Shown: positions 3,517 to 59,556 of the stretch, one piece after another
Layout of the letters: every line of letters begins with the position of its first letter
Position numbering within the stretch: the first letter of the stretch is position 1
IMG/VR virus record: IMGVR_UViG_3300028920_000038
Coordinates: 64,001 to 128,000 of that record
From: a virus
Reading direction: 5' to 3' (one strand)
Length of the DNA stretch: 64,000 nucleotides
Translations under genes and position numbers: made by a program
The notes under the pieces: model-generated
What the model was told of the DNA's origin: nothing
The model's input: only the letters and a program-made list of their open reading frames with translations
Databases searched by the model: none

Positions 3517-3518
3517 AT

Positions 3519-4300: not shown

Positions 4301-4301
4301 T

Positions 4302-5422: not shown

Positions 5423-5454
5423 AAAATGATGCATTTAATAATAATAAAATTTTA

Positions 5455-7836: not shown

Positions 7837-8459
7837 AAGAAACTATTTTATTTATAGGACCTCATCCAGATGATATAGAGATAAGTTGTGGAGGATCATT
7901 ATCTTATTTCAGCAAAGAATATTATACTGTATGTATATACCTAACTAAAGGAGAGATGGGTGGAGATCCTATAATAAGAGAAGAAGAGAGTAAATTATCT
8001 TGTGATATTTTAGGAGCAGATAAGATAATATTTGGAAATTTCAGAGATACATGTATTCCATATAATATTGAAACTATAAGTTTCTTAGAACAACAATACA
8101 ATAGGTATAAACCAAGTATTATATTTATTCCGAGTTCAAAAGATAGTCATCAAGATCATAGAAAAACAAATCTCTCTTGTAAAGCTGCATTTAGAAAAGC
8201 TAATAGAATATTAGAATATGAAACCTCTTCAGTAGATAATAATTATAATCCAGTATTTTTTATAGATATTAGTGAATTTATAGAAATAAAAGAAAAGGCC
8301 TTAAAAATGCATAAAACACAAATGCATAAAAATGCAATGGATTACAAAGCAATTATAAATTTGTCAAGTTTTAGAGGAAGACAAGTAAATGTAAACAATG
8401 CAGAAGCATTTGAAATAGTGAAATATTTATATGACAACTATAGCAATACATCAACCTAA
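7833..8459 (+). CDS. PIG-L/LmbE-family N-acetyl-sugar deacetylase
   Basis: GPHPDDIEISCGG, REEES, DSHQDH motifs. Confidence 0.9.
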   Translation: MKETILFIGPHPDDIEISCGGSLSYFSKEYYTVCIYLTKGEMGGDPIIREEESKLSCDILGADKIIFGNFRDTCIPYNIETISFLEQQYNRYKPSIIFIPSSKDSHQDHRKTNLSCKAAFRKANRILEYETSSVDNNYNPVFFIDISEFIEIKEKALKMHKTQMHKNAMDYKAIINLSSFRGRQVNVNNAEAFEIVKYLYDNYSNTST

Positions 8460-9117
8460 TTATCTACCTTATATTGGGTTTTTTCATAAAATCCTTATTA
8501 GTGATATTTTTATTATATATGATGATGCCCAATATTCTAGAAAAGATTTTCATAGAAGAAATAGAATAAAAATTAATTCAAAACAAAAGTGGTTATCAGT
8601 ACCATTGATAGGAAGTAGTTTTAATAAAATTAATGAAATGAGAATCAATAATAATATAGAATGGCAAAAAGAACATTGGAAATTTATAAACATATCATAT
8701 GAAAAATCTTCATATTTTCCAGAGATCATAGATGCATTTTATGATATTTATCATAAAGAATATAAATATCTCATAGATATAAATATGGATTTAATATTTA
8801 AATTAATGGATATTCTTGACTTAGATAATAATAAAATAGTATTTAGCTCAAAAATGAATTTAAAAAAGACCAAAGTGGATAGATTAATAGAGATGATAAA
8901 AAAGAAAGAAGGAACAACCTATTTTAGTGGAATAGGGGGTAAAAATTATATAGATGAAACATTATTTTTGGAAAATAATATAAATTTAATATACCAGAAA
9001 TTTGATCATCCAATCTATAAACAAATAAAAGGAGATTTTATACCAAATTTATCTATAATAGATATGCTATTTAACTGTGGTGAAGAATATACAAAAAATA
9101 AATTAAGAGAATTATAA
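8431..9117 (+). CDS. wbqC: WbqC-family protein
   Basis: AIHQPNYLPYIGFFHKI..SDIFIIYDDAQY, RNRIK, YFSG.GG..Y, F.PNLSIIDMLFN.G signatures. Confidence 0.9.
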   Translation: MTTIAIHQPNYLPYIGFFHKILISDIFIIYDDAQYSRKDFHRRNRIKINSKQKWLSVPLIGSSFNKINEMRINNNIEWQKEHWKFINISYEKSSYFPEIIDAFYDIYHKEYKYLIDINMDLIFKLMDILDLDNNKIVFSSKMNLKKTKVDRLIEMIKKKEGTTYFSGIGGKNYIDETLFLENNINLIYQKFDHPIYKQIKGDFIPNLSIIDMLFNCGEEYTKNKLREL

Positions 9118-9947
9118 TGGATGATTACAAAATATTTTATTCTTGCAATGCAAGTGAAGGAAAAATGTTAAAGTATTTATTTTATTCTATATTATCTGCT
9201 AGAAAATATATTAATAAAGAAGATGTATTAGTATATCTACACCCACCATATAATAATGAGAATACTGAATTAATAGATAAGATAAAGAAAATATCTAAAG
9301 TTACCAATTTGGATGATTACATTGGAATTCCATATTCTGTCCATCCAAAGTCAGATCCTAATAATAAAAGATATTTTGGAGAAAAATTAAATGTTATAAA
9401 TGTTGATTCTGATATAGTAATAGCATTAGATTGTGATACTTTTATATACAAAGATCCTATTATATTATTAGAAGGAGATTATGACTTTGGTGCAAATGCT
9501 ACAGATTTAACAAAAACTTCTTGGCAATCCAAGAATAATCTTATAGAAATTATGAGAAGAGTATATAAATTTAAACTAAGTGATGAAATACATTTATGGA
9601 ATGGAGGAACTTATATATTTAAAAATAGATCTCATAAGAAGATAGGAAAATATTGGTTAGATATTTTTAATAATGATAGAAATACTCTAGATTATTGTAT
9701 GAAACCAAATAGAAAAGTGTATGATCAAACTGCATTATCAGTAGCCACTGCTAAATACAGATTAAAATTAAAAACATTTTCTGATAAAGTCATATCAGAA
9801 GTAAGAGGAAAAGAAGGAAAATGGTCAAAAGACGATATCCCAGAAGAAAGTGTTATAGTACATGGGAATGGATTAGCAGATGGAATTGGAATGAAAGAAG
9901 AGTTAGATTTATTTTATTGTAAATTGATAGGTGATAGTCATGACTAA
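9117..9947 (+). CDS. Putative glycosyltransferase (GT8-like)
   Basis: VIALDCDTF (DxD), WNGGTYIF, DQTALS, IVHG. Confidence 0.65.
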   Translation: MDDYKIFYSCNASEGKMLKYLFYSILSARKYINKEDVLVYLHPPYNNENTELIDKIKKISKVTNLDDYIGIPYSVHPKSDPNNKRYFGEKLNVINVDSDIVIALDCDTFIYKDPIILLEGDYDFGANATDLTKTSWQSKNNLIEIMRRVYKFKLSDEIHLWNGGTYIFKNRSHKKIGKYWLDIFNNDRNTLDYCMKPNRKVYDQTALSVATAKYRLKLKTFSDKVISEVRGKEGKWSKDDIPEESVIVHGNGLADGIGMKEELDLFYCKLIGDSHD

Positions 9948-10947
9948 GATATCAGTATTATTAGCAACAAATAGAGTAAATAGGAATGTATTCCCATATA
10001 TACAAAAGTGTGTAGATGGATTAGATTATTTACAAGAAGATACATTTACAGATGAATTCTATGAATTGTGTAATAATACATTATTGAATATACAATACCA
10101 TTTCTTAGAGACTTCTCTTATATCTCTTTCAAATCAAAAATTCAAAGATTTTGAAGTTATTATATCTCATAGATATCCAAAAGATGCAGAGATGATAGTT
10201 AAGGAATATGTAGATAATTATAATGTCCCAATTAGATTAGTGAAAGAGAAGCATTCGGTATGGCATGATTTAGGAGAACAATACCATACAGTAGCTAATA
10301 ATAAGAATACCGCATTCATAAATTCATCTGGTGAATTGATATATCATATAGATGATCTTACATTTTTTAATGAAAATCTTTTACAAGAAGCTTGGGATGA
10401 ATATCAAAATGGTAATTATATGACTGGAAGAACGGTAAGGTGTATAACATATGATAAAAATTTAGAAAACTCGATAGATAAAGTGGGACCTAATAAGATA
10501 CAAATAACTAAGAATGGTTGGACTGGACAAAAGAAACCTTTAACTAACGATAAATACATTCCTATGAATATGTTTTGGACTTGCAGTGCATCTGTATCGG
10601 CAGAGGAATTATTAGAGATAAATGGATATGATGAGTTATATGATGGATCATTAGCTGGAATAGATATGGATGCTGGAAATAGGTTATCACGTATTAGTAA
10701 TTATAATAGAATAGCTAGCGAAAATTACCTATATGAAATAGATGATCCTACACCGAAGAATATGGTTAGAGATGATGTTCTTATGAGAAAGATATTTAGA
10801 GTAAGTCATATAAGAGCTAATTCTTGGAAACCTAAAAAATTTCAGATTAGGAGATATGAGAATTGGCATAAACATACATTAGGAGAATTAGATCCTAATT
10901 GGGATAAATTTATGGACATTCCATTTTATAATATAGAGAGAATATGA
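9931..10947 (+). CDS. Putative glycosyltransferase (GT2-like)
   Basis: KISVLLAT, QKFKDFEVII, NTAFINSSGELIYHIDD, INGYDE.Y.G...G.D. Likely start is ATG 9940 after a GGTGA RBS. Confidence 0.7.
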   Translation: MIVMTKISVLLATNRVNRNVFPYIQKCVDGLDYLQEDTFTDEFYELCNNTLLNIQYHFLETSLISLSNQKFKDFEVIISHRYPKDAEMIVKEYVDNYNVPIRLVKEKHSVWHDLGEQYHTVANNKNTAFINSSGELIYHIDDLTFFNENLLQEAWDEYQNGNYMTGRTVRCITYDKNLENSIDKVGPNKIQITKNGWTGQKKPLTNDKYIPMNMFWTCSASVSAEELLEINGYDELYDGSLAGIDMDAGNRLSRISNYNRIASENYLYEIDDPTPKNMVRDDVLMRKIFRVSHIRANSWKPKKFQIRRYENWHKHTLGELDPNWDKFMDIPFYNIERI

Positions 10948-11624
10948 AAATAGAAAATATTAAATATCATCTAGTTGCTAATCATAAAATAGCATACAAA
11001 TTAAATTCTGAAGAAATACTAAATGAAAATTCTGTAATTTTTGACTGTGGTGCATATGTTGGGAAATTTACAGAAGAAATATTTAGATTAATTAATCCTA
11101 ATATAAATATGTTTTTATACGAACCTAATATAATTTTATATAAAAAACTAGTAGATAAATTTGAAAATAAGGAGAATGTAAATATTTTTAATAAAGCAAT
11201 TTCAAATAAAGTTGGTTTTAATAATTTGTATTTAGGTAAAAATTTGAATGAGAGTAGTTTAAAAAAATCAAAGAAAGGATTGACTAATGATTATTTAAAT
11301 GTAGAAACAACAACTATACCGAATGAAATAATAAAATTAAATTTAAAGTATATAGATGTTATAAAATTAAATGTAGAAGGAGAAGAATTAGATATTATAA
11401 ATAATTTAGATAAAGGTGTTCTAGAGAAAATAGGACAATTTGCTGTTGCATTTCATTTAAATAATGGAATAAAAGATTATACACAAGAAATTCATGATAA
11501 TACTATAAAATATATGATAAATAATGGATTTACTTCTAGTAATTACTATAAAAATAAACATAAATTATTTTTTAATGAAAAGTGGTATAATACTGACAAA
11601 TATAAGGAGTTAAGATATGGATAG
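10944..11624 (+). CDS. FkbM-family SAM methyltransferase
   Basis: IFDCGAYVGKF, FLYEPN, IDVIKLNVEGEEL. Confidence 0.85.
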   Translation: MKIENIKYHLVANHKIAYKLNSEEILNENSVIFDCGAYVGKFTEEIFRLINPNINMFLYEPNIILYKKLVDKFENKENVNIFNKAISNKVGFNNLYLGKNLNESSLKKSKKGLTNDYLNVETTTIPNEIIKLNLKYIDVIKLNVEGEELDIINNLDKGVLEKIGQFAVAFHLNNGIKDYTQEIHDNTIKYMINNGFTSSNYYKNKHKLFFNEKWYNTDKYKELRYG

Positions 11625-12624
11625 AGAAATATTAATAACTGGAGGATGTGGTTTTATAGGACATCATCTAGCAGAGCATTTATTGAAAAACACTAATTGG
11701 AATATAAAAATACTGGATAGTTTGACATATGCAGGCATACAAAAAAGAATAACAGATATGGGAGCTTATAAAGATAATAAAGATAGAATAAAATTTATAT
11801 TTCATGATTTAAGAGCAGAATTAAATAAAACAACTATAAAAGATTTAGGACAATTAGATTATATTGTTCATATGGCTGCAGAGACACATGTAGATAATAG
11901 TTTAATAGATGCTAGACCATTTATAGAAACAAATGTTATTGGTACTATGAATTTATTAAATTATATAAAAGATAATGATATCGGATTAAAACGGTTTATT
12001 AACTTCAGTACTGATGAAGTTTATGGATCTGCTCCGGATGATTATGATTATAAAGAAGATGATAGATGGAGACCTTCTAATCCGTATTCTGCTAGTAAAT
12101 GTGGACAATCTGCATTAGGAATTGCTTATGCAACATCATTTGGTTTACCTATTATACATACTTATACAATGAATGTTTTTGGGGAGAGACAACATCCAGA
12201 GAAATTAATACCTAAAACTATAAGAACATTTAAAGAAGGGAAACCAATGACAATTCATTGTAAAAAAGAAGGAGATAAAGTTACAGAAATAGGAAAAAGA
12301 TATTGGCTCCATGCAAGAAATGCATCCGATGCAGTTCTATTTCTGTTAGATAAGGGTAAAAATAATGATCACTATAATATAGTAGGAGATATAGAATTAA
12401 CCAATTTGGAGATGACAGATAAAATAGCTAAATATATGGGATTAGATAATCCAAAGTATGATTTTGTAGATTTTCATAAAACTAGACCAGGCCATGATAG
12501 AAGATATTCTCTAGATGGAAATAAACTACGGAAAATGGGATGGAAAGCAAAAGTAGATTTTGAAGAATCTTTAGACAGAACCGTAAAATGGTCTATTAAT
12601 AATATGGATTGGCTATATTTATGA
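11617..12624 (+). CDS. rmlB: dTDP-glucose 4,6-dehydratase-like SDR
   Basis: TGGCGFIG, HMAAETHVDNS, STDEVYG, PSNPYSASK, RPGHDRRYSLD. Confidence 0.85.
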   Translation: MDREILITGGCGFIGHHLAEHLLKNTNWNIKILDSLTYAGIQKRITDMGAYKDNKDRIKFIFHDLRAELNKTTIKDLGQLDYIVHMAAETHVDNSLIDARPFIETNVIGTMNLLNYIKDNDIGLKRFINFSTDEVYGSAPDDYDYKEDDRWRPSNPYSASKCGQSALGIAYATSFGLPIIHTYTMNVFGERQHPEKLIPKTIRTFKEGKPMTIHCKKEGDKVTEIGKRYWLHARNASDAVLFLLDKGKNNDHYNIVGDIELTNLEMTDKIAKYMGLDNPKYDFVDFHKTRPGHDRRYSLDGNKLRKMGWKAKVDFEESLDRTVKWSINNMDWLYL

Positions 12625-13838
12625 AACATAAAATAAGGAATGAATGTCTAATATGTAAAAATAAGAATCTTCACAAATTTTTAGAATTAGGGAACATGCC
12701 TCTCCCTAATAAATTTATAGATAAAGAGGAATTTAATAATGAGGAGTTCTATCCATTAAATGTATACGTTTGTGATAAGTGTTTTCTTGTACAATTAAAG
12801 GATATTATAGATCCAAAACTTCTATTTGATGATTATTTGTATATGACAGGAACTTCAAAGCCATTGGTGGATCATTTAAAAACTTTAGCAAAAGATTCTC
12901 TGAAATATCATAAAGATGGTTTAGTTATAGATATAGGATGTAATGATGGAACTCTATTAAAACATTATAAAAAATTAAATTTTAATACTATTGGAATAGA
13001 CCCTGCAAAGAAAATAACAGATATTGGAAAAAAAGAAGGATTAAATATTATAAATGATTATTTTAGTAGTAAGTGTGTAAAAAAAATATTAGAAATGTAT
13101 GGGAAAGCTAATATAATAACAGCAACAAACGTATTTGCACATACAGAAGATATAAAAACTATAATAGAGGGAGTTCGTGATTTATTGACAGAGGATGGAG
13201 TATTTATTATAGAAGTTCATCATTTGATGAATCTTATATTAAATAATGAATTTGATACTATATATCACGAGCATATATCATATTTTAGTTTATCATCTCT
13301 AATTCATCTTTTTAATTTATATGATATGACAATAATAGATGTTAGAGAAATATCTAATCATGGAGGATCATTAAGAGTTTTTATTAAAAAAACTGGAACT
13401 CCTTCAGATAATGTTTTTAAAATAATTGATAAAGAAAAAGAATTAGGTTTGTATTCTTTAGATACATATAATAATTTCTCAGAAAAAGTTAATGATATAA
13501 AAGATGAATTGATTGATACATTAAAAAATTTAAAAGAAAATGGAAATAGAATTACTGGATATGGAGCTACAGCTAAAGGAAATATACTATTAAACTATTG
13601 TAATATTGGTCCTGATATTCTAGATTATATTAGTGATAGAACTCCATTTAAATGTGGGAAATATAGTCCAGGGATGCATATCCCTATAATATCTGAAGAT
13701 AAATTTCATGATGACAATCCAGATTATGTTTTATTATTGGCTTGGAATTATAAGGATAATATATTAATTAAGGAAGATAAATTCAGAAAAAATGGTGGAA
13801 AATTTATAATTCCTATACCTAAACCAGAAATATTATGA
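12609..13838 (+). CDS. NDP-hexose C-methyltransferase (Zn-binding N-terminus plus class I MT plus C-methyltransferase C-terminal domain)
   Basis: CLIC...LGNMPLPN...CDKCFLVQL, DIGCNDG, FDTIYHEH.SYF, HGGSLR, GYGATAKGNILLNY, LAWNY. Likely start is ATG 12621. Confidence 0.9.
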   Translation: MAIFMKHKIRNECLICKNKNLHKFLELGNMPLPNKFIDKEEFNNEEFYPLNVYVCDKCFLVQLKDIIDPKLLFDDYLYMTGTSKPLVDHLKTLAKDSLKYHKDGLVIDIGCNDGTLLKHYKKLNFNTIGIDPAKKITDIGKKEGLNIINDYFSSKCVKKILEMYGKANIITATNVFAHTEDIKTIIEGVRDLLTEDGVFIIEVHHLMNLILNNEFDTIYHEHISYFSLSSLIHLFNLYDMTIIDVREISNHGGSLRVFIKKTGTPSDNVFKIIDKEKELGLYSLDTYNNFSEKVNDIKDELIDTLKNLKENGNRITGYGATAKGNILLNYCNIGPDILDYISDRTPFKCGKYSPGMHIPIISEDKFHDDNPDYVLLLAWNYKDNILIKEDKFRKNGGKFIIPIPKPEIL

Positions 13839-14482
13839 TAGTTTATACTTCAATTTTTAATAATAATGATAGATTACCAGAACCATTAATTAAGAATAAA
13901 AATATAGAATATATTTGTTTTACAGATGGGCTCAAAAGAAGCAAAAAATCTATATGGAAAATAAAAACTGTGGATGGAATATACGATGGAACTAGGAATA
14001 ATAGATATTATAAAATAAATTCTCATTTATTTTTTCCATCAGAAGAGATTGTATTATATTTAGATCCAACATTTCTAATAATAAAGGATTTTTATAATAA
14101 AATTGAGGAATGGCTTGGAGATAAAGACATAGCTATTAGACCTCATCCTAAGAGAAAATCTATATATGAAGAAGCTGAATATTTAATAAATAATAAACCA
14201 CATAAGATAGATAGTAAAGAATTAATTATAAAACAAATGAATATGCTTAAAAATGAAGATTATCCTGAATCTGAACCTTTATGTGAAGGAGGATTTATTA
14301 TTAGAAGAAACACTGAACAAGTTAAGAAATTTAATGAGATGTGGTGGAATATAGTAAAGAATTATAGTAAGAGAGATCAATTGAGTTTTAATTATGTATC
14401 ATGGAAATTAGGAATAGGTTATAATTTAATAGAGAGAAAGGAAGTTGAAGAATATACCAGGAGAATAGCATGGCATCCTTAA
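13835..14482 (+). CDS. DUF616/TOD1-MUCI70-like glycosyltransferase
   Basis: IVYTSIF...D.L.EP, YICFTD, NRYYKI..H..FP, HP.R.SIYEEA, RDQLSFNYV.WK. Confidence 0.8.
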   Translation: MIVYTSIFNNNDRLPEPLIKNKNIEYICFTDGLKRSKKSIWKIKTVDGIYDGTRNNRYYKINSHLFFPSEEIVLYLDPTFLIIKDFYNKIEEWLGDKDIAIRPHPKRKSIYEEAEYLINNKPHKIDSKELIIKQMNMLKNEDYPESEPLCEGGFIIRRNTEQVKKFNEMWWNIVKNYSKRDQLSFNYVSWKLGIGYNLIERKEVEEYTRRIAWHP

Positions 14483-15210
14483 GAAAGTTAGTAGTATTAA
14501 CTACAGTTGGATTAACAGATTATGTTATAGGAGCATTAGAATCTCTTAAAGAAGAAGAAGCTGATATACTCCTTATAGATGATGGAAGTTCAGTAGATTA
14601 TTCTTATATAATTAATAATTATGAAATAGATTTAATACAAAAGAAAAAAGGTAAAGGAGTTACAGATTCATGGAATATAGCATATAAATTATTTAAAGAT
14701 AATTATGATTATTGTTTATTTTCTAATGATGATGTAATATTCCCAGGAAGAGTACCTCCTGATATGTGGAATGGTTTGGAGAAATATATATTTTTAGGTC
14801 CTTTATCTGATCCTATAGGAAGTGGTAGATTCATGGGTAATTTTCAGAATATTACTACGTATCTTAGAGGAGTAAAAGATTTTAAAGATGTCAAATTAAT
14901 TCAGAATAGATTACAAAAGATACATCCTAATAAAAAGTATCTAGAAATAGGTAAAGATATAGTATTTCAAAGAAAAGAACCTCCATATATTAATGGCTTT
15001 TGTTTTTCTTTTAATAAGGATATAATTGAATATGAATTTCAAAAGGATATTTTATTTAATCCAAAGTATACAAATTCTGGAAATGATAAAGAATTGCAGA
15101 GAGATCGATTAAATAAAGGAAAGGCAATATCTATTAAATCTTATATATTTCACTATAAAGGAGGAACAATAGACCCTTATAGTAATACAAGACAGGAGAT
15201 TATTAATTAA
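14470..15210 (+). CDS. Glycosyltransferase family 2-like
   Basis: LLIDDGS, G.T.SWN, LFSNDDV, INGFCF, FHYKG.T. Confidence 0.75.
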   Translation: MASLRKLVVLTTVGLTDYVIGALESLKEEEADILLIDDGSSVDYSYIINNYEIDLIQKKKGKGVTDSWNIAYKLFKDNYDYCLFSNDDVIFPGRVPPDMWNGLEKYIFLGPLSDPIGSGRFMGNFQNITTYLRGVKDFKDVKLIQNRLQKIHPNKKYLEIGKDIVFQRKEPPYINGFCFSFNKDIIEYEFQKDILFNPKYTNSGNDKELQRDRLNKGKAISIKSYIFHYKGGTIDPYSNTRQEIIN

Positions 15211-16025
15211 TGATAATAATTACGATAGATGGTTTAAATTGGGATACAGCTAATAAATACTGTAAAGATATATTTGAAAATCAAAATATGAAAAAAATAA
15301 AAAATAATGTTAGATTATTTACAAATACACCAGATTCGGGCCAACCTACTCTTGTCGGTCTTACGTGTCTTTGGAGTGGAGAAAAAATTAGAAACTTTGA
15401 TAAAAATTTATTTGCTAGGGTAAATCCAAAATACAATGAGAATTATAAACTCTCATTTAAAGATAAGAGTGGAAATGATTTTGATTTAATATTTAACTAT
15501 TTTAATAAACCAAAAATTCAACTATCTCATCATGGAGGAAATCCTTATTCAAATAATGAAAAATATTTTAAATACTGGACAACACTAGAACCAAAAGTAA
15601 GAATATGCCCATCTGAAGAATGGTGTATAATACCTGAATTATTAAAGAAAGATTATGATTTTTTTCATATTCATACAGAAATTGGTAAGATAGGAGTATT
15701 ACAACATGGTCCTTACGAACAAGGGAGAATGCCTGCTTGTATTCCTTATGATCAAATAAGACAAGATAAAGAATTAAAAAAAGAAGTATATTTATTTGGT
15801 CTTAAAAGATGGATATTTATTATTAAAGAATATTTATCAAAGATGATTGATGATACAATAATAATAACAGCAGATCATGGAACATCATTAGAAAAAATAT
15901 TCAAACCAGAATACATTGATGACATTCCATTAATAATTAATAGAGATGTAGATTTATCAAATGTGACATATCAATGGGAATTAAAAAATTTTATAGTCGA
16001 TTTAAATGAAAGATATAAAGAATAA
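15210..16025 (+). CDS. Alkaline phosphatase/sulfatase-superfamily protein
   Basis: ITIDG first metal motif, PT..G.T.L.SG (possible Thr nucleophile), IITADHG, then DIPLII. Confidence 0.6.
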   Translation: MIIITIDGLNWDTANKYCKDIFENQNMKKIKNNVRLFTNTPDSGQPTLVGLTCLWSGEKIRNFDKNLFARVNPKYNENYKLSFKDKSGNDFDLIFNYFNKPKIQLSHHGGNPYSNNEKYFKYWTTLEPKVRICPSEEWCIIPELLKKDYDFFHIHTEIGKIGVLQHGPYEQGRMPACIPYDQIRQDKELKKEVYLFGLKRWIFIIKEYLSKMIDDTIIITADHGTSLEKIFKPEYIDDIPLIINRDVDLSNVTYQWELKNFIVDLNERYKE

Positions 16026-16350
16026 ATTTGGAGTTCCTTGCAGTCAATTGAAAGAGTATTTAGATGGAACTGAAATACCTTGTACTTCTGAAGTTGAAGC
16101 GATGGCAATGGCTGCAGGAGCTTGGTTTGCAGGTAAAAAACCAGAAGTTTATATGCAAAATAGTGGACTAGGACATATAGTGGATATTGTGTCTAGTTTA
16201 TATAAACCTTATAAAATTCCATTACCAAGAATGTATTTGAGTATTAGATTCAAACCAAAACATCATTATGATATGTTTTTATATACTCCTTCTATTCTAT
16301 TATTAATGGAATATGATGATGTTTTTGAGATCATGCAAGATGACAACTAG
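16006..16350 (+). CDS. Phosphonopyruvate decarboxylase alpha subunit (TPP enzyme N-terminal/PYR domain; ComD-like)
   Basis: GVPCSQLK, SEVEAMAMAAGAWFAGKKPEVYMQNSGLG motifs; two genes upstream of PEP mutase. Confidence 0.85.
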   Translation: MKDIKNKFGVPCSQLKEYLDGTEIPCTSEVEAMAMAAGAWFAGKKPEVYMQNSGLGHIVDIVSSLYKPYKIPLPRMYLSIRFKPKHHYDMFLYTPSILLLMEYDDVFEIMQDDN

Positions 16351-16816
16351 AAAAAAATCTATAGAAAAAATTTTGGAATTAAATCAAAATTCATTAATTA
16401 TATCATCTGCAGGTTATACATCTAGATCCTTATATGAAGTTAAAGATGCTCCAAATCATTTTTATATGATGGGATCAATGGGATGTGCATTACCATTTGC
16501 TATTGGATTAGCTTTAAATACTGATAAGGAAGTGGTAGCTATAATCGGAGATGGAGAATTATTAATGAATTTTAGTTCTCTTATACAAACTGAGAATTTA
16601 AAATTAGATAATTTAACTATTTATATATTAGATAATAATATGTATCAATCAACTGGAGGACAAAAGACTATTAGTGAATATATTCCAAAGTGTGGATTTA
16701 ATGTATGGACTATTAGTATAGAAGATGATCATATACCTCCAAGGATTCCTATAAGTCATAAAGAAATATCGGAGAGATTCTATGAGCACATTAATGGTGT
16801 GCAGCAAATCAACTAA
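16340..16816 (+). CDS. Phosphonopyruvate decarboxylase beta subunit (TPP-binding PP domain; ComE-like)
   Basis: G.TSR.LY, FYMMGSMG, AIIGDGELLMN...ILDNNMYQSTGGQKT (GDG-x-NN TPP motif). Start placed at ATG 16340. Confidence 0.85.
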   Translation: MTTRKKSIEKILELNQNSLIISSAGYTSRSLYEVKDAPNHFYMMGSMGCALPFAIGLALNTDKEVVAIIGDGELLMNFSSLIQTENLKLDNLTIYILDNNMYQSTGGQKTISEYIPKCGFNVWTISIEDDHIPPRIPISHKEISERFYEHINGVQQIN

Positions 16817-17405
16817 AAAATATACTAAACTGTATAATTATGATGAATTATTAATAGTGAAAGAACCTCCAAATAAAGAAACTTTAAAAAAGAAAGATCT
16901 TTATCATAATGTTGTAGCAATAGGAGGAGGAAGTGTCATAGATACAGCTAAGATTTTAAGTATGAATTCAGTGATAGCTATTCCTACTACATATTCTGGA
17001 GCATCTGAGACTTCTCATGCAGTCTATTGGGATAATGGAATGAAATATGATATAGAATGTATTAAACCTATATCTGTTTTGAGAAAAGAATTTATAAATT
17101 TACCTAAACATATTGAAGTAGCTACTAAAATAGATTGCATTTCTCATATTATAGAAAGTTTAATTTCAAAGAATTCTACCATAGATTCTGATAAATACGC
17201 TCTTATAGCTATTAATTTTATAAAAGAAGATAAATGGTTAGAAGCAAGTATATATGCTGGTAAGGCTATTGATATAACTGGTACCAATATTATACATGCT
17301 ATGTCCTATTCATTAACTGGGGTATATGAATTACCTCATGGAGTATCTTTGTTAAAAATATTTGAATTAGCTAAACATTATAAGAAATTAGAGGAATTAT
17401 TATGA
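16782..17405 (+). CDS. Compact iron-containing alcohol dehydrogenase (probable phosphonoacetaldehyde reductase)
   Basis: [22 protein letters not shown], metal ligands in D..SH and H..SY.L...Y.LPHG; only 207 aa. Confidence 0.8.
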
Positions 17406-18673
17406 AAACCGTTTATGTAGGAATGTCAGCCGATTTTATTCATGATGGTCATATAAATATAATAAATATTGCTAGAAATTATGGTAATATAATAATAGGA
17501 CTATTAACTGATGAAGCTATAGCATCATATAAAAGAGTACCTTTATTGTCTTACGAAAAAAGGAAAAAGATATTAGAGAATATAAAATATGTATATAAAG
17601 TAGTGCCACAGAAAACATTAGATTATACCGATAATCTTAAGAAATATAAACCAAATTACGTTGTACATGGAGATGATTGGAAAAAAGGAATACAAAAAGA
17701 AATAAGAAATAAAGTTATAGAAACTTTAAAAGAATGGAATGGAGAATTAATTGAACCTGAATATACAAAAGGTATATCATCTACATTACTTATAAACGAT
17801 AAATTAAATCAAGGAGTTACACCTAATTATAGAAGAGGTAAATTGAAAAAGCTTCTAGAATTAAAGTCATACATAAGAATATTAGAAGCTCATAGTGGTA
17901 TATCTGGTATAGTTGTAGAAAGATCTAATTATAATGGAAAAGAATTTGACGGGATATGGATATCAAGTTTGACAGATTCTACTTCTAAAGGAAAACCAGA
18001 CATAGAAATAGTAGATTTTACATCAAGAATACAAACCATTAATGAGATATTAGAAGTAACCACTAAACCTATTATAGTAGATATTGATACAGGAGGTCAA
18101 ATAGATCATTTTGTATATATGATAAAAACCTTAGAAAGACTAGGAGTATCTGCAATTATAGTAGAAGATAAAACATTTCCTAAAAGGAATTCACTGTCAG
18201 AAGGAGAAATTCACATACAAGAAGATAAAGAGACATTTTGTAGAAAGATAAGAGCTGGAATACAATCTAGAATAACAGATGATTTTATGATAATAGCTAG
18301 AATAGAATCATTTATAACCGGAGAAGAAGTTGATCTTGCATTAAATAGAGCTAAAGACTACATAGAAGCTGGTGCAGATGGTATTATGATACATAGTAAA
18401 AAGAGTAATCCCAAAGATTTAATATTATTTTGTGATGAATATAAGAAATTTAAAAATAGAGTTCCATTAATTTTAGTTCCTACTACATATAATTGGATGA
18501 AAGAAGAAGAGTTAAATTCTTTAGGTGCTAATATTATTATATATGCTAATCATCTATTAAGATCATCATATAAATCTATGAAAGAAGTAGCTAAAGAAAT
18601 ATTAAAAAATGAAAGAAGTTTAGAAGTAAATGATATGTGTACAAGTGTTAAGGAGATATTAGAATTAATATGA
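17402..18673 (+). CDS. pepM: Cytidylyltransferase-phosphoenolpyruvate mutase fusion
   Basis: N-terminal HDGH (HxGH) NTP-transferase with VVHGDDW; C-terminal EAHSG, DIDTGG and the PepM-diagnostic EDK-x5-NS ([10 protein letters not shown]), [15 protein letters not shown]. Confidence 0.95.
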
Positions 18674-19503
18674 TAATTGGTATAATAGGATTCGGAATGG
18701 TTGGTAGAGCAATACATCATGGTTTTGCTCAAATATGTGATTTTAAAATTTATGATAAAGATAAGAAATTATCAGAAAATACATTAAAAGAAACTTTAGT
18801 AAATAGTGATTTTATATTTATATGTGTGCCTACTCCAATGAAAAAAGAAAATGGAGAAATAGATTTAAAATCTTTAGATAGTACATTGTCTTACGCTAAT
18901 AAATATATACCAAGAGAAGATAAAATATTGATTATTAAATCAACAATAGTTCCAGGTACTACAGATAGTTATATAAAAAAATATCCAAATCTAAATATTA
19001 TATTTAATCCAGAATTTCTAACAGCTCGTACATCTAAATTGGATTTTATTAATTCGTCTAGAGTCATATTGGGAGGGGATCCTAAATTAACCAGTAGAGT
19101 AGCAGATTTATATGGAAAAAGATTTACACATACTCCTATTTATCTAACAGACGCAAGAACAGCTGAATTAGTTAAATATACAGCTAATTGTTTCTTTGCG
19201 ACTAAGGTTTCGTTTTTTAACGAAATTTTTGATATATGCCGAAAGTTAGATATAAGATATGAAGATGTAAGAGATATGACATTAGCGGATGGGAGAATAG
19301 GCAATTCTCATACAGATGTTCCAGGTCATGACGGTTTAAGGGGATTTGGTGGATTATGCTTTCCAAAGGACCTTAATTCTATGATATACAAAGCTGAAGA
19401 ATTAGGTGTAGATCCTAAAGTTATGAAAGCTGTATGGGAAAAAAACATTGAAGTAAGAGAAAAGAAAGATTGGGAGAAAATCGAAGGTGCGGTCTCAGAT
19501 TAA
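18670..19503 (+). CDS. ugd: UDP-glucose/GDP-mannose dehydrogenase family, lacking the C-terminal UDP-binding domain
   Basis: [44 protein letters not shown]; 277 aa. Confidence 0.85.
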
Positions 19504-20194
19504 AAAAGCTGTAATTCCTGCAGCTGGTTTAGGTACTAGATTCTATCCTATAACCAAATGTATACCAAAAGAAATGTTACCTATAAAAAATAAGCCTATA
19601 ATTCATTATGTCATTGATGAAGCAATTCAATCTGGAATTACTGATATAGCAATTATAACAAGAAAAGGCAAAACAGTAATAGAAGATTATATAGATGAAA
19701 TGAATTTTGAGGCTAATTTCTATTACTTAAGACAGAAATACCCAATGGGATTAGGTCATGCAGTACTAACAGCAGAAGGATTTATAGGAGAAGAAGACTT
19801 TGCTGTACTTTTAGGAGATGATCTATTAGATAATAATAGGGATCTACAAAATATGATGAAATTAAATCACTGCATAGCAGTGGAATCTGTAGTAGATCCG
19901 AGTAAATATGGAGTAGTATCTATTAAAGATAATAAAATAATAGATATAATTGAAAAACCAAAAAAGAATGCTCCGAGTAATTACGGAGTAGTGGGTAGAT
20001 ACATTCTACCTTATAAAATATTTAAATATATTAAAAAACAAAAGACAGATGAAAATGATGAGATTCAACTAACATACGCAATTCGGGATATGATAAGAGA
20101 AGGATATTCTTTTAGTCCTTATTATCTAACCGGAAAGCGTTATGACTGTGGAACTCCAGATTCGTATAAGGGCTGTTTTTTGGACTATTTTTAA
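19487..20194 (+). CDS. galU: UTP-glucose-1-phosphate uridylyltransferase
   Basis: [47 protein letters not shown]. Confidence 0.9.
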   Translation: MRSQIKKAVIPAAGLGTRFYPITKCIPKEMLPIKNKPIIHYVIDEAIQSGITDIAIITRKGKTVIEDYIDEMNFEANFYYLRQKYPMGLGHAVLTAEGFIGEEDFAVLLGDDLLDNNRDLQNMMKLNHCIAVESVVDPSKYGVVSIKDNKIIDIIEKPKKNAPSNYGVVGRYILPYKIFKYIKKQKTDENDEIQLTYAIRDMIREGYSFSPYYLTGKRYDCGTPDSYKGCFLDYF

Positions 20195-20309
20195 GTACCC
20201 TTACCTATACCATTCGTTTTAAAAAAAGGTGTTATAGTAACTAATTTTGAGTCAATTTTTAGGAACTATTCCTAATTTTTGAGCTTTTTTTTAAATAGGG
20301 TCACCTTAA
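20195..20309. terminator. Convergent intergenic region; probable terminator(s)
   Basis: Gap between oppositely transcribed blocks. Hairpin TTAGGAA-cta-TTCCTAA (20259-20275) followed by T runs on +; A7 run at about 20221 gives a T run on -. Confidence 0.5.
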
Positions 20310-20795
20310 TTATAACCCTGAAGATCCACTAACAAACCCTTCTATTTTTGTGTGGATCCAATCTATAGTATCTAAAGTAGTTGTAGTTATATTTTTTACA
20401 TATAGGAGAGTGTTTTTTCTCATATTTTTTAGATTAGACCCATTCATAGCAGATGAGCTTGGTGTAGGATATAATCTTAAAGTATTCTCTCCAGTCCATG
20501 TCTGATCATAATAAGTAGGTCTACCAAGAATCTTATATAACTCTCCAGTTGCTCCAGGGGTTACATTAGACATTAGGGTATTTAATTGTGTTTCATCTAA
20601 CCAAGTTGAGACTGTTACAGAGTAATTCTCAACATCCCAGCGAGAACACTTACAATCTATAAAATCGTCTCCATCTAAGGAATTATAAAAAATAGCTAAA
20701 TCATTTTCAAATTTAAATAACGTAGGGATATCTCTAAAAGTGATACCTTCATCATCATCGAAATGATAAGTAAAAGAATAGTGACTTGTTGGCAT
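20310..20795 (-). CDS. Virion protein made almost entirely of a Dit/baseplate-like domain shared with 26574..27458 and 27458..28684
   Basis: IDCKCSRWD.ENYSV...TPGATGELYKILGRPTYYDQTWTGENTLR...KIEGFVSGSS is nearly identical to the C-terminus of 26574..27458. Confidence 0.55.
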   Translation of the reverse strand: MPTSHYSFTYHFDDDEGITFRDIPTLFKFENDLAIFYNSLDGDDFIDCKCSRWDVENYSVTVSTWLDETQLNTLMSNVTPGATGELYKILGRPTYYDQTWTGENTLRLYPTPSSSAMNGSNLKNMRKNTLLYVKNITTTTLDTIDWIHTKIEGFVSGSSGL

Positions 20796-20842
20796 ATTAA
20801 TCTAAATGTGGATATATTATGATATTACGATAATACCATAAT

Positions 20843-21061
20843 CTAAGTTATTACATCCTCATCTATTTCAGGACTTAATGATTCTTGTGCTATTCTTATT
20901 TTACCACTTTTATATATTCTCTTAATTGTAAAAACTATTTTATCTTTAATCCACTGATTATCAGTTCCTTCCCAATCGTCTGGTATTGGATATATTTTAA
21001 GGAATCCAGCTTTGAATTCTTCCAATTTTTCATCAGGAACTGTTAATGTTAATTCTACCAT
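20843..21061 (-). CDS. Hypothetical protein (72 aa), possible fibre chaperone
   Basis: ORF with GAGG RBS; function guessed from position only. Confidence 0.5.
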   Translation of the reverse strand: MVELTLTVPDEKLEEFKAGFLKIYPIPDDWEGTDNQWIKDKIVFTIKRIYKSGKIRIAQESLSPEIDEDVIT

Positions 21062-21099
21062 TTTAACCTCTTCTTTCTTTAATTTATAAACATATTAAA

Positions 21100-21777
21100 T
21101 TAAATATTATATGAACCTGAAACCCAAGCCCATGAAGTAGGGTTTCCACTTGGATAAAAATAATTCGAAGATGAACTAATAACTCCCCATTTCCAATTAG
21201 TCGGTTCATCTGAAGTTGCTCTAATTCCACTATCAACATTGAATTGACCTGAATTCCACACCCAAGATGTAGGAGAGCCAACAAGAGTTATGAATTTACT
21301 ATAATAACTGCCTTCCTCTTCACAAGTATAATATACGTACATTTTAACATAATCTACATACATACCTCCTTCATTGATATCTGTATTAGCAACAGCTTTT
21401 AATGCTATTCCAGATGGAAAATCAGATAGATCCTCACCCCAATCATCATCTTGTGCTCCAGCTGTCTCTATACTATGATCTGGATATTCAGTAAATTCTC
21501 CTGTTTCTTTACCGTCTGAAAAAGTCTGACCACTATCTATTGATATATACATTATTAAAGATGGAGAACTTCCTTCTACAGTTCCTTTAGCTTTAGCTTC
21601 TGCTACTATGCCATCTACTTGATAAATTTCACAATCAAGATTAAAATCATGTCCTCCTACTGTAACGTATTCTCCATCGGAAAGAATTGTTGAACAACCT
21701 CCATCCTCCAAAACGCAACCAGAATAATTTACATCAGAATCTATTACATTACTAAAAAAAGTGCTATCAGATGACAT
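21100..21777 (-). CDS. Putative virion fibre/decoration protein with a Trp-rich C-terminal module shared with 48744..51281
   Basis: C-terminal SPTSWVWNSGQFNVDSGIRATSDEPTNWKWGVISSSSNYFYPSG. Confidence 0.55.
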   Translation of the reverse strand: MSSDSTFFSNVIDSDVNYSGCVLEDGGCSTILSDGEYVTVGGHDFNLDCEIYQVDGIVAEAKAKGTVEGSSPSLIMYISIDSGQTFSDGKETGEFTEYPDHSIETAGAQDDDWGEDLSDFPSGIALKAVANTDINEGGMYVDYVKMYVYYTCEEEGSYYSKFITLVGSPTSWVWNSGQFNVDSGIRATSDEPTNWKWGVISSSSNYFYPSGNPTSWAWVSGSYNI

Positions 21778-21781
21778 AGTA

Positions 21782-22315
21782 TCAAATTAGATTAATTAAA
21801 TCGTTACTTAAATTTTGTCCATAGTAAATTTCATTGTTTACTACAGAACTCGATGCATTTGCATAATTGTAAAGCCAATGGAATTCATAAGTTTCTAGCA
21901 TATTATAAGATAGATATCCTTGTATTCTATCTACTTCTTCATTATATTTTAATGTACTAAAGCTATACTCTAACAGAGAATGAGCTTCGCTGATACCGCT
22001 AGAATTACCAAAATCATATAATATTAATTCACAAATAGCCAAATCATCTTTAATATCCCACTGAAAATAAGATGTCATATTAGAACCACTAAATGCACCA
22101 TAACCAACTTTATTAGCTGATGGATGGTTACATAAACTAACGTTAGATATATCACTAGAATAAATACGTTTTCCCTTCCACAAATCTACTAATTCATTAT
22201 CATCAAGATGTCTATTAGTATGGTTGGAATTACTACTTTGCCATGATCTATAATATTCATACAAATAATACACATCAACGATATCATCTTCAATTATTTC
22301 TCTATATGTAATCAT
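21782..22315 (-). CDS. Hypothetical protein, possibly GNAT fold
   Basis: ITYREIIEDDIVDV start and VGYGAF...SYFQW beta-strand pattern are GNAT-like; acetyl-CoA loop not clearly seen. Confidence 0.35.
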   Translation of the reverse strand: MITYREIIEDDIVDVYYLYEYYRSWQSSNSNHTNRHLDDNELVDLWKGKRIYSSDISNVSLCNHPSANKVGYGAFSGSNMTSYFQWDIKDDLAICELILYDFGNSSGISEAHSLLEYSFSTLKYNEEVDRIQGYLSYNMLETYEFHWLYNYANASSSVVNNEIYYGQNLSNDLINLI

Positions 22316-22327
22316 AATTAATCGTTA

Positions 22328-25300
22328 TTAAGTAGACAGACCTAGCTGTATCCATTCCCAGCTATTCGCATCATTCTTAACTGACATAAATATCCATGTC
22401 TTCTCATCAGTGCCACCAGATACTCTAATTATCTCACCCTTATGATTTGTAGCAGTAGGTTTAGATGAATATAGATTAGTTAATACCTGCATACCTGATA
22501 TTTGACTACTAGTTGCCATAGAATTAATAATAGATCCACTTATCTTCGTATTACCGGATAAATAGATATTTCCGTATCCACCAGTATTTATAGAAACTGA
22601 CCCACTACCAATAATATTAATATATGGATATGAATCTAATGTATCTCCATATAACCATAATTCACTTCCAGTAGATGAATCGCCCATAATAACAGATTGA
22701 TTTGCACCAGCATTATATTGAAATTTAAAAGATTGAGTATCTTCTTCATAAAATTTTATATCATTTTTTGTCCGTAATTCTATTTCCTCGTCTCCTTTTA
22801 GACGTATGTGTGGGAAATCAGTAGCAGTATTCGCATATATTCTCAAATCGTTTCCTGCTTCATCAGGTCCATATAATTTAGCAATTGTAGAAGTACCTGA
22901 GAATGTAAATTGAGTATCAGTCTTATTTCTTATTCTAAAGAATCCACCATCATTTGGCCCATAAGATGCAACAATAGAACCAGAACCATTCAAAGTTATA
23001 TATGGATAATCATCATCTGAGTTTGCTTTTATTTCTAAATCATCACTAGTATCAGCCCCTCCTTGGATAAAACTATCTGCGCCATTAAGATAAAATTTAG
23101 CAATCTGTGCTGCTTCATTAAAAATCTTAAAACTTGTAGCGTCTTGAATTTTTAAATAAGATGCATCTCCAATATTCATTTCGATACGTGGATAATTTGC
23201 ACCATCTCTTGCATAAATCCACAAATCAGCACTAGCATTTGTATTACCATAGAACTTTGAAATAGGATCATCTATAGTAAACTTGAACATTTGAGTAGAA
23301 CCGCTCTTGAAATAAATGTTTTCAGTTGTACCTATAACTGTATCTCCATCTGCTTGTATAGCAATTCCACTAACTCCACCAGCTACTAGATTTGCTTGGT
23401 CTGATTTTAATGCTAGGTAGGTATCTGAATCCCCTACGTGTTCTACTTTCTCAGTAGTTTTTAGATAACTACCTCGAATATTAACTCCGGATATATATGA
23501 GGCATTATGAATTCCTTTGCTATTCCAATCCTTATGGTCATCTATACTTAAAGCAGATAATGTAGATACACCACCACCTGAACCACCAGATGGCATAGCT
23601 ACCCAAGCTGAGCCATTCCACATAATACCGGAATTAGTAAATTCATCAGAATCCCATCCATCGATTTCAGTATCTTCACGGATATGATCTAAACTTCCAC
23701 CACCACCTGAACCAGCTCCACTTGCAGTTAAGGATATCCAATCACCAGAATTAGCACTACAGAGATATATATCGCAATTTGTAGTGGAACCTGACATCCA
23801 TAGATTACCTGCAATTTTTGAAGGTTCAGATCCACCAGGTTTAATATATACCATATTACTGGACATTCTAAATAATGTATCGTGATTATCATATATTCTA
23901 AATTGTTGACTACTTGGTATTGTAAGAACTGCATTACCAGAACCTAATAATTCCAATTGACATTTTCCTTTAGGTCCGTTATCCACACCATAATTAGGTT
24001 TTATTCTCATTCCACTGGCTGATTTATTGGTACCATATATATATGAATATGTTCCTACACGGTCAAATAGAAACATTACATTAGATCCATCACTCATGTA
24101 GATATCAGGATTACCAGCTACACCTTGAAGATTAATATAACTATTGCCTACCATATGTATTCTAGGCCAAGTATCAGTAGAATTTGCATTAATACGTAAT
24201 TTCTCACCAGTACCAGCACCACCTTCTAATATAGAACCAATACTAGAACCTGAGTAAAATTTGAATGCTTGGACTCCATTTTCATCTATACGGAAATCAT
24301 TGCCAGTACCATAGTTAATCTCTACAGAACCACCACCAAACATTCTTAACCAAGGTATCATATCTGTACTATTTGCATGAATATAAAGGTCTCCAGTAGA
24401 ATTACTTCTACCCTCTATTACAGAATTATCACTACCAGAAAGATAAAACTTAGCTATTTGAGTATCTTTACTCTTAATATAAACATTTCCAGATGCATTA
24501 ATATCGATATGAGAACTATCGTAAAGAGTTATTAGAGGCCAAAGTTTATCATCAGTTCCTTGTATGTTGAGATTACCAGCAGAGCCACCTTCTATGTAAT
24601 TATTACCACCTTGTTTATTAAATTTGAACATCTGCGTTGTATTATTAAGAAACTGTATGACACTTCCATCAGCACAACCCATCTCTACATTTCCACTACC
24701 GTATAAAAATAAACCTGCTCTTTTATCAGTATCATTTGCATAGATGTACAAGTCTCCTCCAGTAGGGTCTGGTCCTCGAATATATGAGTTACCAGCAGTA
24801 TAATTAAATCGAAACATCTGCGTGCCTTGTTCCTTGAAGTAAATATCAGCGTAGGAATCTATATTTATATTACTACTTCCAACCATATCAATATATGGAT
24901 ATGAATAATCTTCATGTGCTTTCCAATTAAATCGAGCTCCATTTGTTGCAGCTCCATCTAGATGAACATCACTATAATTATTATCTGTATAAACTCTAGC
25001 AGAATTATGACCTTGATTTCCAAATACTACTTTAGAATTACCAGATGCGGAAATATAAATATTTCCAGGTACTGTTGCATCACCATCTCCTATCATCCAA
25101 ATCATTGGATAGGAATCAACTGAATTTGCCTGTATGATTAAATCATTCTCGTTTGTAGAACCTCCATAAAGATAAGATTGATTAGTACCATAAACAAACT
25201 TAAATGACTGTGTGCCTTTGTCAGTGAAATAGATGTCATTATTAGAACCTAATATCAAATCACTATCAGAAGATATATAAGGGATATTAGTGATACCATG

Positions 25301-41038: not shown

Positions 41039-41040
41039 AT

Positions 41041-59466: not shown

Positions 59467-59556
59467 TTTATTTCCCTTTATTTTATTATTATAACATACT
59501 GTAAAATTACAGTGAACATAGGACAAATAAACATAAAAAAACATAAAGTTTTAAAA

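Follow-up and report, generated by a model that had tools for sequence, protein, structure and literature searches.

A predicted compact route to CMP-linked 2-hydroxyethylphosphonate in the glycan island of a tailed virus from marine sediment

Here we report the analysis of a 64,000-nucleotide stretch of viral DNA (the window), bases 64001-128000 of the linear 137,847-bp IMG/VR virus record IMGVR_UViG_3300028920_000038, which is rated 87% complete, and of a cassette of five closely packed plus-strand genes at positions 15210-18673 within it. The cassette encodes a Fom1-type fusion of a cytidylyltransferase (CyTase) and phosphoenolpyruvate (PEP) mutase (PepM), a phosphonopyruvate decarboxylase (Ppd) dependent on thiamine diphosphate (TPP) and split in two, a miniature iron-dependent alcohol dehydrogenase (Fe-ADH), and a protein of the alkaline-phosphatase (AP) superfamily. 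We consider it probable that the virus encodes a compact route to cytidine monophosphate-linked 2-hydroxyethylphosphonate (CMP-HEP), a likely donor for the capping of a glycoconjugate during infection. New here are a full predicted HEP route in a tailed virus, that is, known chemistry in a new carrier, together with half-size enzymes and a candidate transferase. Positions refer to the window, except that those marked G000 are positions in the whole record.

The phosphonate cassette

The genes of the cassette and the two diagnostic motifs of the fusion protein are as follows.

15210-16025, + strand: AP-superfamily protein of 271 residues, from a rare, mostly viral family (AlphaFold2 (AF2) fold, invariant residues)
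16006-16350, + strand: predicted phosphonopyruvate decarboxylase alpha, the TPP pyrimidine-binding half, 114 residues (TIGR03297, 9IZ3)
16313-16816, + strand: predicted phosphonopyruvate decarboxylase beta, the TPP diphosphate-binding half, 167 residues (PF02775, GDG-x26-NN)
16782-17405, + strand: miniature Fe-ADH, predicted phosphonoacetaldehyde reductase, 207 residues (Fe-ADH Pfam families, 1e-10)
17402-18673, + strand: Fom1-type cytidylyltransferase-PEP mutase fusion, 423 residues (Pfam, TIGR02320 and PDB matches)
17441-17452, + strand: HDGH (HxGH) nucleotidyltransferase motif, residues 14-17 of the fusion (translation)
18164-18193, + strand: ten-residue EDK-x5-NS PEP-mutase signature, residues 255-264 of the fusion (translation)

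The original prediction, made by a model from the DNA letters, had proposed a PepM with the EDK-x5-NS motif fused to an HxGH cytidylyltransferase, and both motifs stand in the translation. Pfam places a CTP_transf_like domain (PF01467, 2.2e-16) at residues 9-131 and a PEP_mutase domain (4.5e-53) at residues 148-401. The EDK-x5-NS signature separates PepM from other members of the isocitrate-lyase superfamily; its residues E255, D256, K257, N263 and S264 are invariant in 23 homologues, as are H14, G16 and H17 of the HxGH motif, and a GISST motif is also present in the CyTase domain. The fusion scores 366.6 bits with the NCBIfam equivalog model TIGR02320 (PEP_mutase), above the curated cut-off of 319.55, while the next model, phosphonopyruvate hydrolase, gives 157.9 bits, under its own cut-off. 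Mytilus PEP mutase 1M1B aligns to the fusion at 1.3e-48, and the protein is predicted to convert PEP to phosphonopyruvate. Residues 3-130 match PDB 5X3D (1.8e-48), which was deposited as PEP phosphomutase and which we take to be the CyTase domain of Fom1.

Adjacent alpha and beta subunits of a TPP decarboxylase had been predicted as well, and both were recovered. The alpha half has no Pfam match; it aligns with TIGR03297 (Ppyr-DeCO2ase; 8.9e-15, 54.5 bits, the sulfopyruvate decarboxylase alpha model giving 54.2 bits) and with the solved Ppd alpha subunit PDB 9IZ3 (2.2e-06), and is 63% identical to its counterpart in L002, a related viral contig described below. Its conserved MQNSGLG block is aligned to 9IZ3, and the Glu of its SEVEAM stretch, which aligns with a Glu of 9IZ3, is in our reading the putative cofactor-activating residue. 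The beta half matches TPP_enzyme_C (PF02775, 1.4e-17), carries GDG-x26-NN at residues 79-109 of its translation, and is also recognized by TIGR03846 (8e-35) and TIGR03297 (4.5e-30). A separation of phosphonopyruvate from sulfopyruvate decarboxylase by the NCBIfam models was tried, and the models did not discriminate. The two halves together comprise 281 residues, about three quarters of the roughly 380 of a normal decarboxylase. Ppd genes adjoin or overlap PepM in the window and in four other contigs (L002, L003, L009 and L091), and a Ppd-type gene stands beside PepM in 25 further IMG/VR loci.

The predicted Fe-ADH is encoded at 16782-17405. At 207 residues against about 380 it is about half the normal size and does not have the full two-domain architecture of about 360-400 residues; the original prediction did not remark on the small size of this enzyme or of the decarboxylase. 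Among NCBIfam models the phosphonate-linked TIGR03405 fits best, though its 60 bits fall well short of the cut-off of 423.7, and sulfoacetaldehyde reductase is among the other matches. We file the protein as a reduced variant of the phosphonate-pathway Fe-ADH (PhpC/FomC/Pdh), not as a standard member. Its 277 homologues, of 113-363 residues, fall into two size classes of about 207 and about 253 residues. Among 40 aligned homologues GGGS 48-51, D118, H172 and H186 are invariant and H122 occurs in at least 90%. The AF2 model (pLDDT 95, pTM 0.90) overlays solved Fe-ADHs in Foldseek searches (1o2d, TM-score 0.83 by query). The decarboxylase beta and dehydrogenase genes overlap by about 32-35 nt, as they also do in a relative at 51-56% identity. 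Judging from conserved residues and the model, the small decarboxylase and dehydrogenase are apparently intact, and the set of PepM, Ppd, Fe-ADH and cytidylyltransferase is complete, as had been proposed, with the checked residues in place.

The interval 15210-18673 had been read as these four enzymes; all four lie within it, and its first open reading frame (ORF), at 15210-16025, encodes in addition the AP-superfamily protein, a candidate transferase that the original prediction missed. This 271-residue protein has no Pfam (including PF00884), NCBIfam or PDB sequence match, and a hydrophobic-segment scan found no membrane segment in it. A full HMMER scan of 1.8 billion cluster representatives returned only about five full-length relatives. 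In seven aligned sequences of the family D7-G8, P46 and D222-H223-G224 are invariant, with T47 beside P46. In the AF2 model (pLDDT 76, pTM 0.80) T47 opens the helix 46-56, and the Asp, the Thr at the helix N-terminus and the DHG triad stand where the superfamily typically has its metal ligands and nucleophile. The top Foldseek matches are EptC, MCR-1 and EptA (E about 1e-6, probability 1.00), and VIA-align gives Z 15-16 over 200-226 residues to many AP-superfamily chains. The ESM Atlas puts the protein beside a mostly viral cluster of 283 residues and small archaeal NPP-type proteins. With 271 residues in total and no N-terminal multi-helix membrane domain, the part that binds the lipid donor in those enzymes, it is not a member of the EptA/MCR-1 family, though it may act like these enzymes with a soluble donor.

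A homologue with 46% identity to the 271-residue protein directly follows PepM in L002, and one with 66% identity stands beside a stand-alone cytidylyltransferase on a short contig; in other contigs, viral as well as cellular, the cassette is flanked by sulfatase-type AP-superfamily proteins. Some genomes have the rare family of the 271-residue protein in duplicate: the 2.2-kb contig L092 (1-1397) carries two tandem copies followed by a PP-loop (SGGLDS) protein. ORFs of 113 and 147 residues after the L092 homologue were considered as decarboxylase halves and were refuted by BLAST and translation; L092 is therefore no evidence of a linkage between the AP-fold family and the cassette. Since the record has no LicD, our analysis makes the 271-residue protein the best candidate for the transfer of the phosphonyl group from CMP-HEP to an acceptor.

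Viral setting, host and recurrence

The cassette is part of a larger island that adjoins the virion genes.

371-20194, + strand: glycan and sugar-nucleotide island of about 20 kb, with 26 co-oriented genes (Pfam and annotation)
18670-19503, + strand: short protein resembling nucleoside diphosphate (NDP)-sugar dehydrogenases, 277 residues, without the C-terminal domain (PF00984, PF03721)
19487-20194, + strand: sugar-1-phosphate nucleotidylyltransferase, GalU/RmlA-like (PF00483, 5.5e-35)
20195-20309, no strand: convergent junction of the glycan island and the virion block (bridging Logan contig, L002)
20310-64000, - strand: virion module (PHROGs)
45236-48280, - strand: fibre (PHROGs)
58495-59544, - strand: major head protein (PHROGs)
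59972-61531, - strand: head protease (PHROGs)

The virion module that had been predicted next to the cassette is thus identified by its major head protein, head protease and fibre. The island lies between viral genes, with terminase, PolB, ribonucleotide reductase (RNR) and primase genes on one side and head and tail genes on the other. Continuity and viral origin, which the original prediction had asked to be confirmed, were checked with independently built Logan contigs of a marine sediment metagenome, probably the source and the only public run in which the stretch occurs. These contigs cover 14500-17536 (depth 84) and 18283-22427 (depth 88) without any difference, and the second one, of 4145 nt, bridges the island/virion junction. 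The uncovered part, 17537-18282, lies within the conserved PepM gene, and we attribute this gap to a break of the assembly graph rather than to a misjoin. The gene order is the same, both across this gap and across the junction, in L002, a 144.5-kb viral contig of another IMG/VR data set (UViG 3300030616); the major head proteins of the two viruses are 74% identical. L002 carries the same set of alpha, beta, Fe-ADH and PepM genes, its plus-strand block ends in the same short sugar dehydrogenase, and its first minus-strand gene is 61% identical to that at 20310-20795. Because of the viral flanks, the bridged junction, the equal depths and the conservation of the junction in L002, we conclude that the island is encoded by the virus and is no assembly chimera, and that its join to the virion block is real. 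The G+C content is 0.25-0.27 in the island (G000 66001-84000, window about 2000-20000) versus 0.29-0.35 elsewhere in the genome, which fits a swappable island and, given the evidence of continuity, not a misjoin.

The record probably represents a large tailed double-stranded DNA virus of archaea from marine sediment. This assignment, which the original prediction did not make, is based on sequence affinities: the major head protein is closest to those of haloarchaeal tailed viruses (26-30% identity), PolB is closest to Halorubrum viruses, the gene at G000 46817-47707 encodes the large-subunit domain of an archaeo-eukaryotic primase, and that at G000 40693-41733 encodes a Rad51/RadA-type recombinase with a SWIM finger. 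The terminase gives no indication of the host, since the archaeal virus ANMV-1 tops the coverage-ranked list (26.5% identity, 6e-27) but E-values are better for Bacillus-group phages (1e-34 to 4e-40). Many start codons are preceded by GGAG-type ribosome-binding motifs. A whole-genome scan found no tRNA genes and hence gave no host clue from tRNAs. A sigma-70 promoter and terminator scan of 13500-21000 found promoter-like sites less often than in shuffled sequences and terminators at chance level; the scan is uninformative, which would be expected with an archaeal host.

Several other features of the genome were noted. Very large ORFs occupy 22328-26554 (1408 residues), 28684-32394 (1236 residues) and 32400-38648 (2082 residues) of the virion block, the first two of them without a PHROG match. 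The minus-strand genes at 20310-20795, 26574-27458 and 27458-28684 all match one L002 ORF (44-61% identity), so that their products have a repeated domain in common. Outside the window, a 718-residue protein (G000 7515-9671) combines a PAPS-reductase (PP-loop) domain with an ATP-dependent DNA ligase domain; it is encoded upstream of the island, as are the terminase, PolB and RNR, and in L091, a contig of a related virus, PAPS_reduct is a separate gene close to the phosphonate cassette.

The CyTase-PepM fusion is common and promiscuous: more than 8000 proteins match it at E up to 1e-20, and identity stays at 55-62% between many bacterial and archaeal phyla. A related fusion is encoded by a Borg element of archaea. 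An alignment-based pattern scan of IMG/VR, where a single-protein scan had given only two relatives, located the fusion at 28 viral loci. At 25 of them it is accompanied by both the split decarboxylase and the dehydrogenase in their small forms, and one locus lies within a 189,182-bp genome that has direct terminal repeats and is rated 100% complete. The cassette is also held by the virus-like ENA contigs L009 (PolB, clamp loader) and L091 (PolB). This recurrence in dozens of viral contigs was likewise missed by the original prediction. More than 25 viral contigs retain the small forms, at 38-65% identity and free of internal stops. At the 80 closest loci of GTDB genomes, by contrast, the decarboxylase is one protein of about 375-400 residues and the dehydrogenase has about 360-400 residues, wherever they are present and complete.

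Trees of the dehydrogenases and of PepM were built with FastTree and its local supports. Every viral dehydrogenase in the tree (26 of 26) is small, full size being seen in 52 of the 53 from cells, and the small forms fall into one clade with a single exception (32 of 33; local support 100). Two cellular-looking contigs carry small forms, one along with an archaeal prepilin peptidase and DnaJ, the other with a flippase and a transposase; because of these contigs, the small module is virus-enriched and not proven to be virus-exclusive. The proposed PepM phylogeny distributed the viral proteins over at least three clades, namely that of the window, a virus-only clade of 19, and a clade holding L003, the window's own clade of 19 being made up of four viral contigs and 15 metagenome proteins. 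It was also tried as a source for the donor or host, and none was obtained, the fusion being spread over many phyla. Among 50,697 phage records a full-length relative of the fusion occurs only in two short unannotated faecal contigs (47-50% identity).

Predicted product, sugar context and known systems

From the gene content we infer the following series of reactions, which follows the established enzymology of Fom1, Fom2, FomC and PhpC (named in PMC8942020). The PEP mutase domain would convert host PEP to phosphonopyruvate, and the split decarboxylase would turn this into phosphonoacetaldehyde, drawing the unfavourable equilibrium forward. The 207-residue Fe-ADH would reduce phosphonoacetaldehyde to HEP, and the N-terminal HxGH Fom1-type domain would join HEP and CTP to give CMP-HEP. 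The phosphonyl group might then pass, possibly by way of the 271-residue protein, to a glycoconjugate made by the soluble enzymes of the island.

HEP and CMP-HEP, not 2-aminoethylphosphonate (AEP), are a reasonable prediction for the product, because the 137.8-kb record has no class-V (Aminotran_5) or DegT aminotransferase anywhere, as the original prediction had also found for the genes it saw. PF01467-Ppm fusions occur in AEP clusters too (PMC8942020), and for the substrate of the CyTase domain it is this context, with an Fe-ADH present and neither aminotransferase family in the record, that points to HEP.

CMP-HEP would most probably serve as a glycoconjugate donor, since the cassette lies inside a 20-kb island of soluble sugar enzymes. 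The island encodes epimerases/dehydratases, FkbM, C- and other methyltransferases, GT1 and GT2 glycosyltransferases, a TOD1/MUCI70-like protein, a radical SAM-SPASM protein, a PIG-L deacetylase and WbqC, plus an HNH endonuclease. None of its 26 proteins has a candidate transmembrane helix, and no flippase, polymerase or oligosaccharyltransferase was found in it, so that export would need host parts. The all-soluble composition weakly favours a cytoplasmic acceptor, for instance a sugar linked to a nucleotide or lipid, or virion proteins not yet assembled. In the 137.8-kb record, rated 87% complete, a search for LicD (PF04991) at E up to 0.01 was negative, and a PntC-type domain (PF12804) is likewise missing.

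The two genes that follow PepM also concern sugars. The product of 18670-19503 matches TIGR03026 (8.5e-53) over model positions 66-296 of 413 only, and L002 (15342-16130), L118 (12118-12909) and L120 (13585-14376) have homologues with 53-65% identity a few kb downstream of PepM; this short NDP-sugar dehydrogenase-like protein may hint at the nature of the sugar acceptor, or it may be one more enzyme reduced in size. The product of 19487-20194 matches GalU at 1.4e-68, below the cut-off. Farther upstream, the HNH endonuclease gene (3709-4158) has unusually long gaps on either side (3517-3708 and 4159-4504) and may be a homing element or a sign of island mobility. In related viral or archaeal cassettes (L009 6654-8702, the P0030 contig, and L010 5901-7373) B12-binding radical SAM and LicD genes stand beside PepM, a hint that the phosphonate head groups of these relatives are methylated (2-hydroxypropyl-type).

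The closest chemical parallel to the predicted pathway is the early fosfomycin pathway of Streptomyces (Fom1, Fom2 and FomC, leading to CMP-HEP), with which it shares the four activities, the fusion architecture and the lack of an aminotransferase. The set in the window differs in being viral, in its split Ppd (114 + 167 residues) and 207-residue dehydrogenase, in having no Fom3, Fom4 or FomD equivalents, and in lying among glycan genes and not in an antibiotic cluster. Cellular phosphonoglycan systems include the HEP-exopolysaccharide of Stackebrandtia nassauensis and the methylphosphonate adduct of Nitrosopumilus maritimus (cited in PMC8942020). The clusters for such HEP or methylphosphonate glycans likewise have PepM, Ppd and Fe-ADH beside sugar genes, and sulfatase-type AP-superfamily proteins adjoin the cassette in the cellular contigs compared here; however, these clusters encode full-size enzymes, flippases and membrane proteins, and the window has no MpnS. 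The Pnt pathway (PepM, Ppd, AEP transaminase, PntC and LicD) shares the nucleotidyl activation of a phosphonate followed by glycan transfer, whereas the record has no AEP transaminase, LicD-family transferase or PntC-type domain.

For viruses, Li and Horsman (2022; PMC8942020) reported no Ppm in RefSeq viruses or in 364 huge-phage genomes and a single viral Ppm, on a giant-virus contig with the AEP pathway, in 501 metagenome-assembled genomes of giant viruses. That contig of a nucleocytoplasmic large DNA virus, with a Ppm-Ppd fusion, is similar to the window in having a viral PEP mutase beside aminosugar genes, and its authors read it as a viral phosphonoglycan system, but it belongs to a eukaryotic giant virus, uses the AEP branch and has another fusion (PMC8942020). 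In the literature searched we found no description of an HEP route in a virus of bacteria or archaea, which agrees with the original statement that no characterised virus with the full route was known; one further paper considers pepM only in the phosphorus cycling of communities. The cultured Vibrio phage Va2 (MW073017; L093) has annotated genes for a PEP mutase and a TPP-binding protein about 3.7 kb apart. At 1089-2189 and 5890-7194 we observed a PepM-like protein with a long extra C-terminal region and a 366-residue TPP-binding protein. The PepM-like protein is about 30% identical over half of the protein and has EDK-x6-NS, not x5; no Fe-ADH or HxGH cytidylyltransferase was seen in Va2. This EDK-x6-NS gene is unique among the 50,697 phage records and apparently unstudied.

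The 271-residue protein shares its core fold with EptA, EptC and MCR-1 and with the AP-superfamily transferases LtaS and GacH (Foldseek E about 1e-6; VIA Z 14.6-15.0). It differs from EptA, EptC and MCR-1 in having no membrane domain or Pfam match, and its donor would be a CMP-linked phosphonate, not a phospholipid.

Competing explanations and meaning

Several observations weigh against the proposed HEP route and its acceptor. The decarboxylase beta half scores higher with the sulfopyruvate beta model (120.4 bits) than with the Ppd model (104.9 bits), and both halves are far under the NCBIfam cut-offs because the proteins are short. Relative to a 379-residue relative, the dehydrogenase is without some 45 N-terminal, 22 internal and 100 C-terminal residues, and its cofactor binding or oligomerisation may therefore differ. 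A placement of the AP-fold protein in a subfamily by structure comparison was tried; sulfatases, transferases, NPP phosphodiesterases, phosphonate monoester hydrolases and cofactor-independent mutases tie at Z 15-16, so that no subfamily could be assigned, and the obvious alternative is that the protein could be a phosphodiesterase or hydrolase. The pointers to the virion are limited to adjacency to the virion block, the sugar-enzyme context and an island free of membrane proteins, and a phosphonoglycan coat on the virion is a hypothesis. Finally, the record is linear and rated 87% complete, and transferase or aminotransferase genes could therefore lie past its ends.

The strongest alternative, tentative but serious, accepts that the pathway works and differs on the destination of the product: membrane machinery of the host would take the activated phosphonate to remodel the host surface, be it a lipid, the capsule or an S-layer glycan; this might, for instance, keep out superinfecting viruses or hide receptors, and no virion coat would be made. 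Relatives of the cassette in cells do sit with flippases, membrane sulfatase-type proteins and polysaccharide genes, and the viral island, having no flippase, polymerase or oligosaccharyltransferase of its own, would depend on the host for any export. Phosphonates have also been linked to cell-surface glycoproteins, with protection from phage and grazers suggested (Acker et al. 2022, PNAS). On the other hand, the island adjoins the virion module, and its 26 proteins without membrane segments suit cytoplasmic acceptors at least as well. We give similar weight to remodelling of the host surface and to a virion acceptor.

It is unlikely that the cassette makes a free small phosphonate (HEP or a fosfomycin-like metabolite) as a weapon or phosphorus sink, with no decoration of glycans. 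Its four activities are the first steps of fosfomycin biosynthesis, its CyTase domain has the 5X3D match given above, and B12-radical SAM genes reminiscent of Fom3 stand beside the cassette in related viral contigs; yet no B12-radical SAM gene was found in the window, no epoxidase or protein of HepD/MpnS size is among the annotated ORFs of the island, and the cassette is embedded among glycosyltransferases and NDP-sugar enzymes. Bacterial HEP-glycan conjugates are, moreover, known (PMC8942020).

Slightly less credible still is decay, in which the half-size enzymes would be remnants and the cassette dead, or active only in PepM and the cytidylyltransferase. The reduced lengths of the dehydrogenase and the decarboxylase and the scores of all the small enzymes under curated NCBIfam cut-offs would suit it, but the small forms are maintained without internal stops in the viral contigs described above, 40 homologues conserve the GGGS and the metal ligands, the small dehydrogenases group in one clade, and the fold of the window's dehydrogenase is confidently predicted.

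Very improbable, in our view, is a cellular origin of the DNA, through a misjoin with viral sequence or the misfiling of a cellular contig as a virus: the low G+C of the island and the Logan gap within the PepM gene would fit it, but they are outweighed by the viral genes on both flanks, the similar depths across the gap, the bridged junction, the identical order in L002 across both points, and the 28 IMG/VR loci, one of them in a complete genome with terminal repeats. We put just as little faith in a sulfonate pathway, with the TPP enzyme as a sulfopyruvate decarboxylase and the dehydrogenase as a sulfoacetaldehyde reductase, since against the beta-half scores and the reductase match stand the overlap or abutment of these genes with a protein passing the PEP mutase equivalog model in every contig examined, the phosphonate-linked TIGR03405 as best dehydrogenase model, and the absence of sulfolactate or coenzyme M genes among the annotated ORFs.

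Returning to the compact CMP-HEP route, we suggest, as a bolder and rather doubtful extension of it, that large archaeal and bacterial viruses share a virus-specific mini module, composed of a split Ppd of 280 residues, an Fe-ADH of 207-250 residues of single origin and the CyTase-PepM fusion, and that in the window's virus it operates wholly in the cytoplasm along with soluble sugar enzymes, where a new soluble AP-fold enzyme would move the phosphonyl group from CMP-HEP to the glycans of virion proteins to give a phosphatase-resistant coat with C-P bonds.

The finding opens to testing the viral synthesis of a C-P compound during infection and its acceptor, as well as phosphonyl transfer from a CMP-linked donor by a soluble AP-fold protein. 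The 207-residue Fe-ADH and the 281-residue split decarboxylase, if working, are possibly the smallest versions of these enzymes and would be of interest to enzymologists. Marine organic phosphorus includes a large pool of phosphonates, which also feed the release of methane, and to our knowledge the known makers of phosphonates are cells. If the extended proposal is true, the AP fold would gain a new transferase chemistry, and sediments and the sea would receive phosphonates from virions, a source so far unrecognised.

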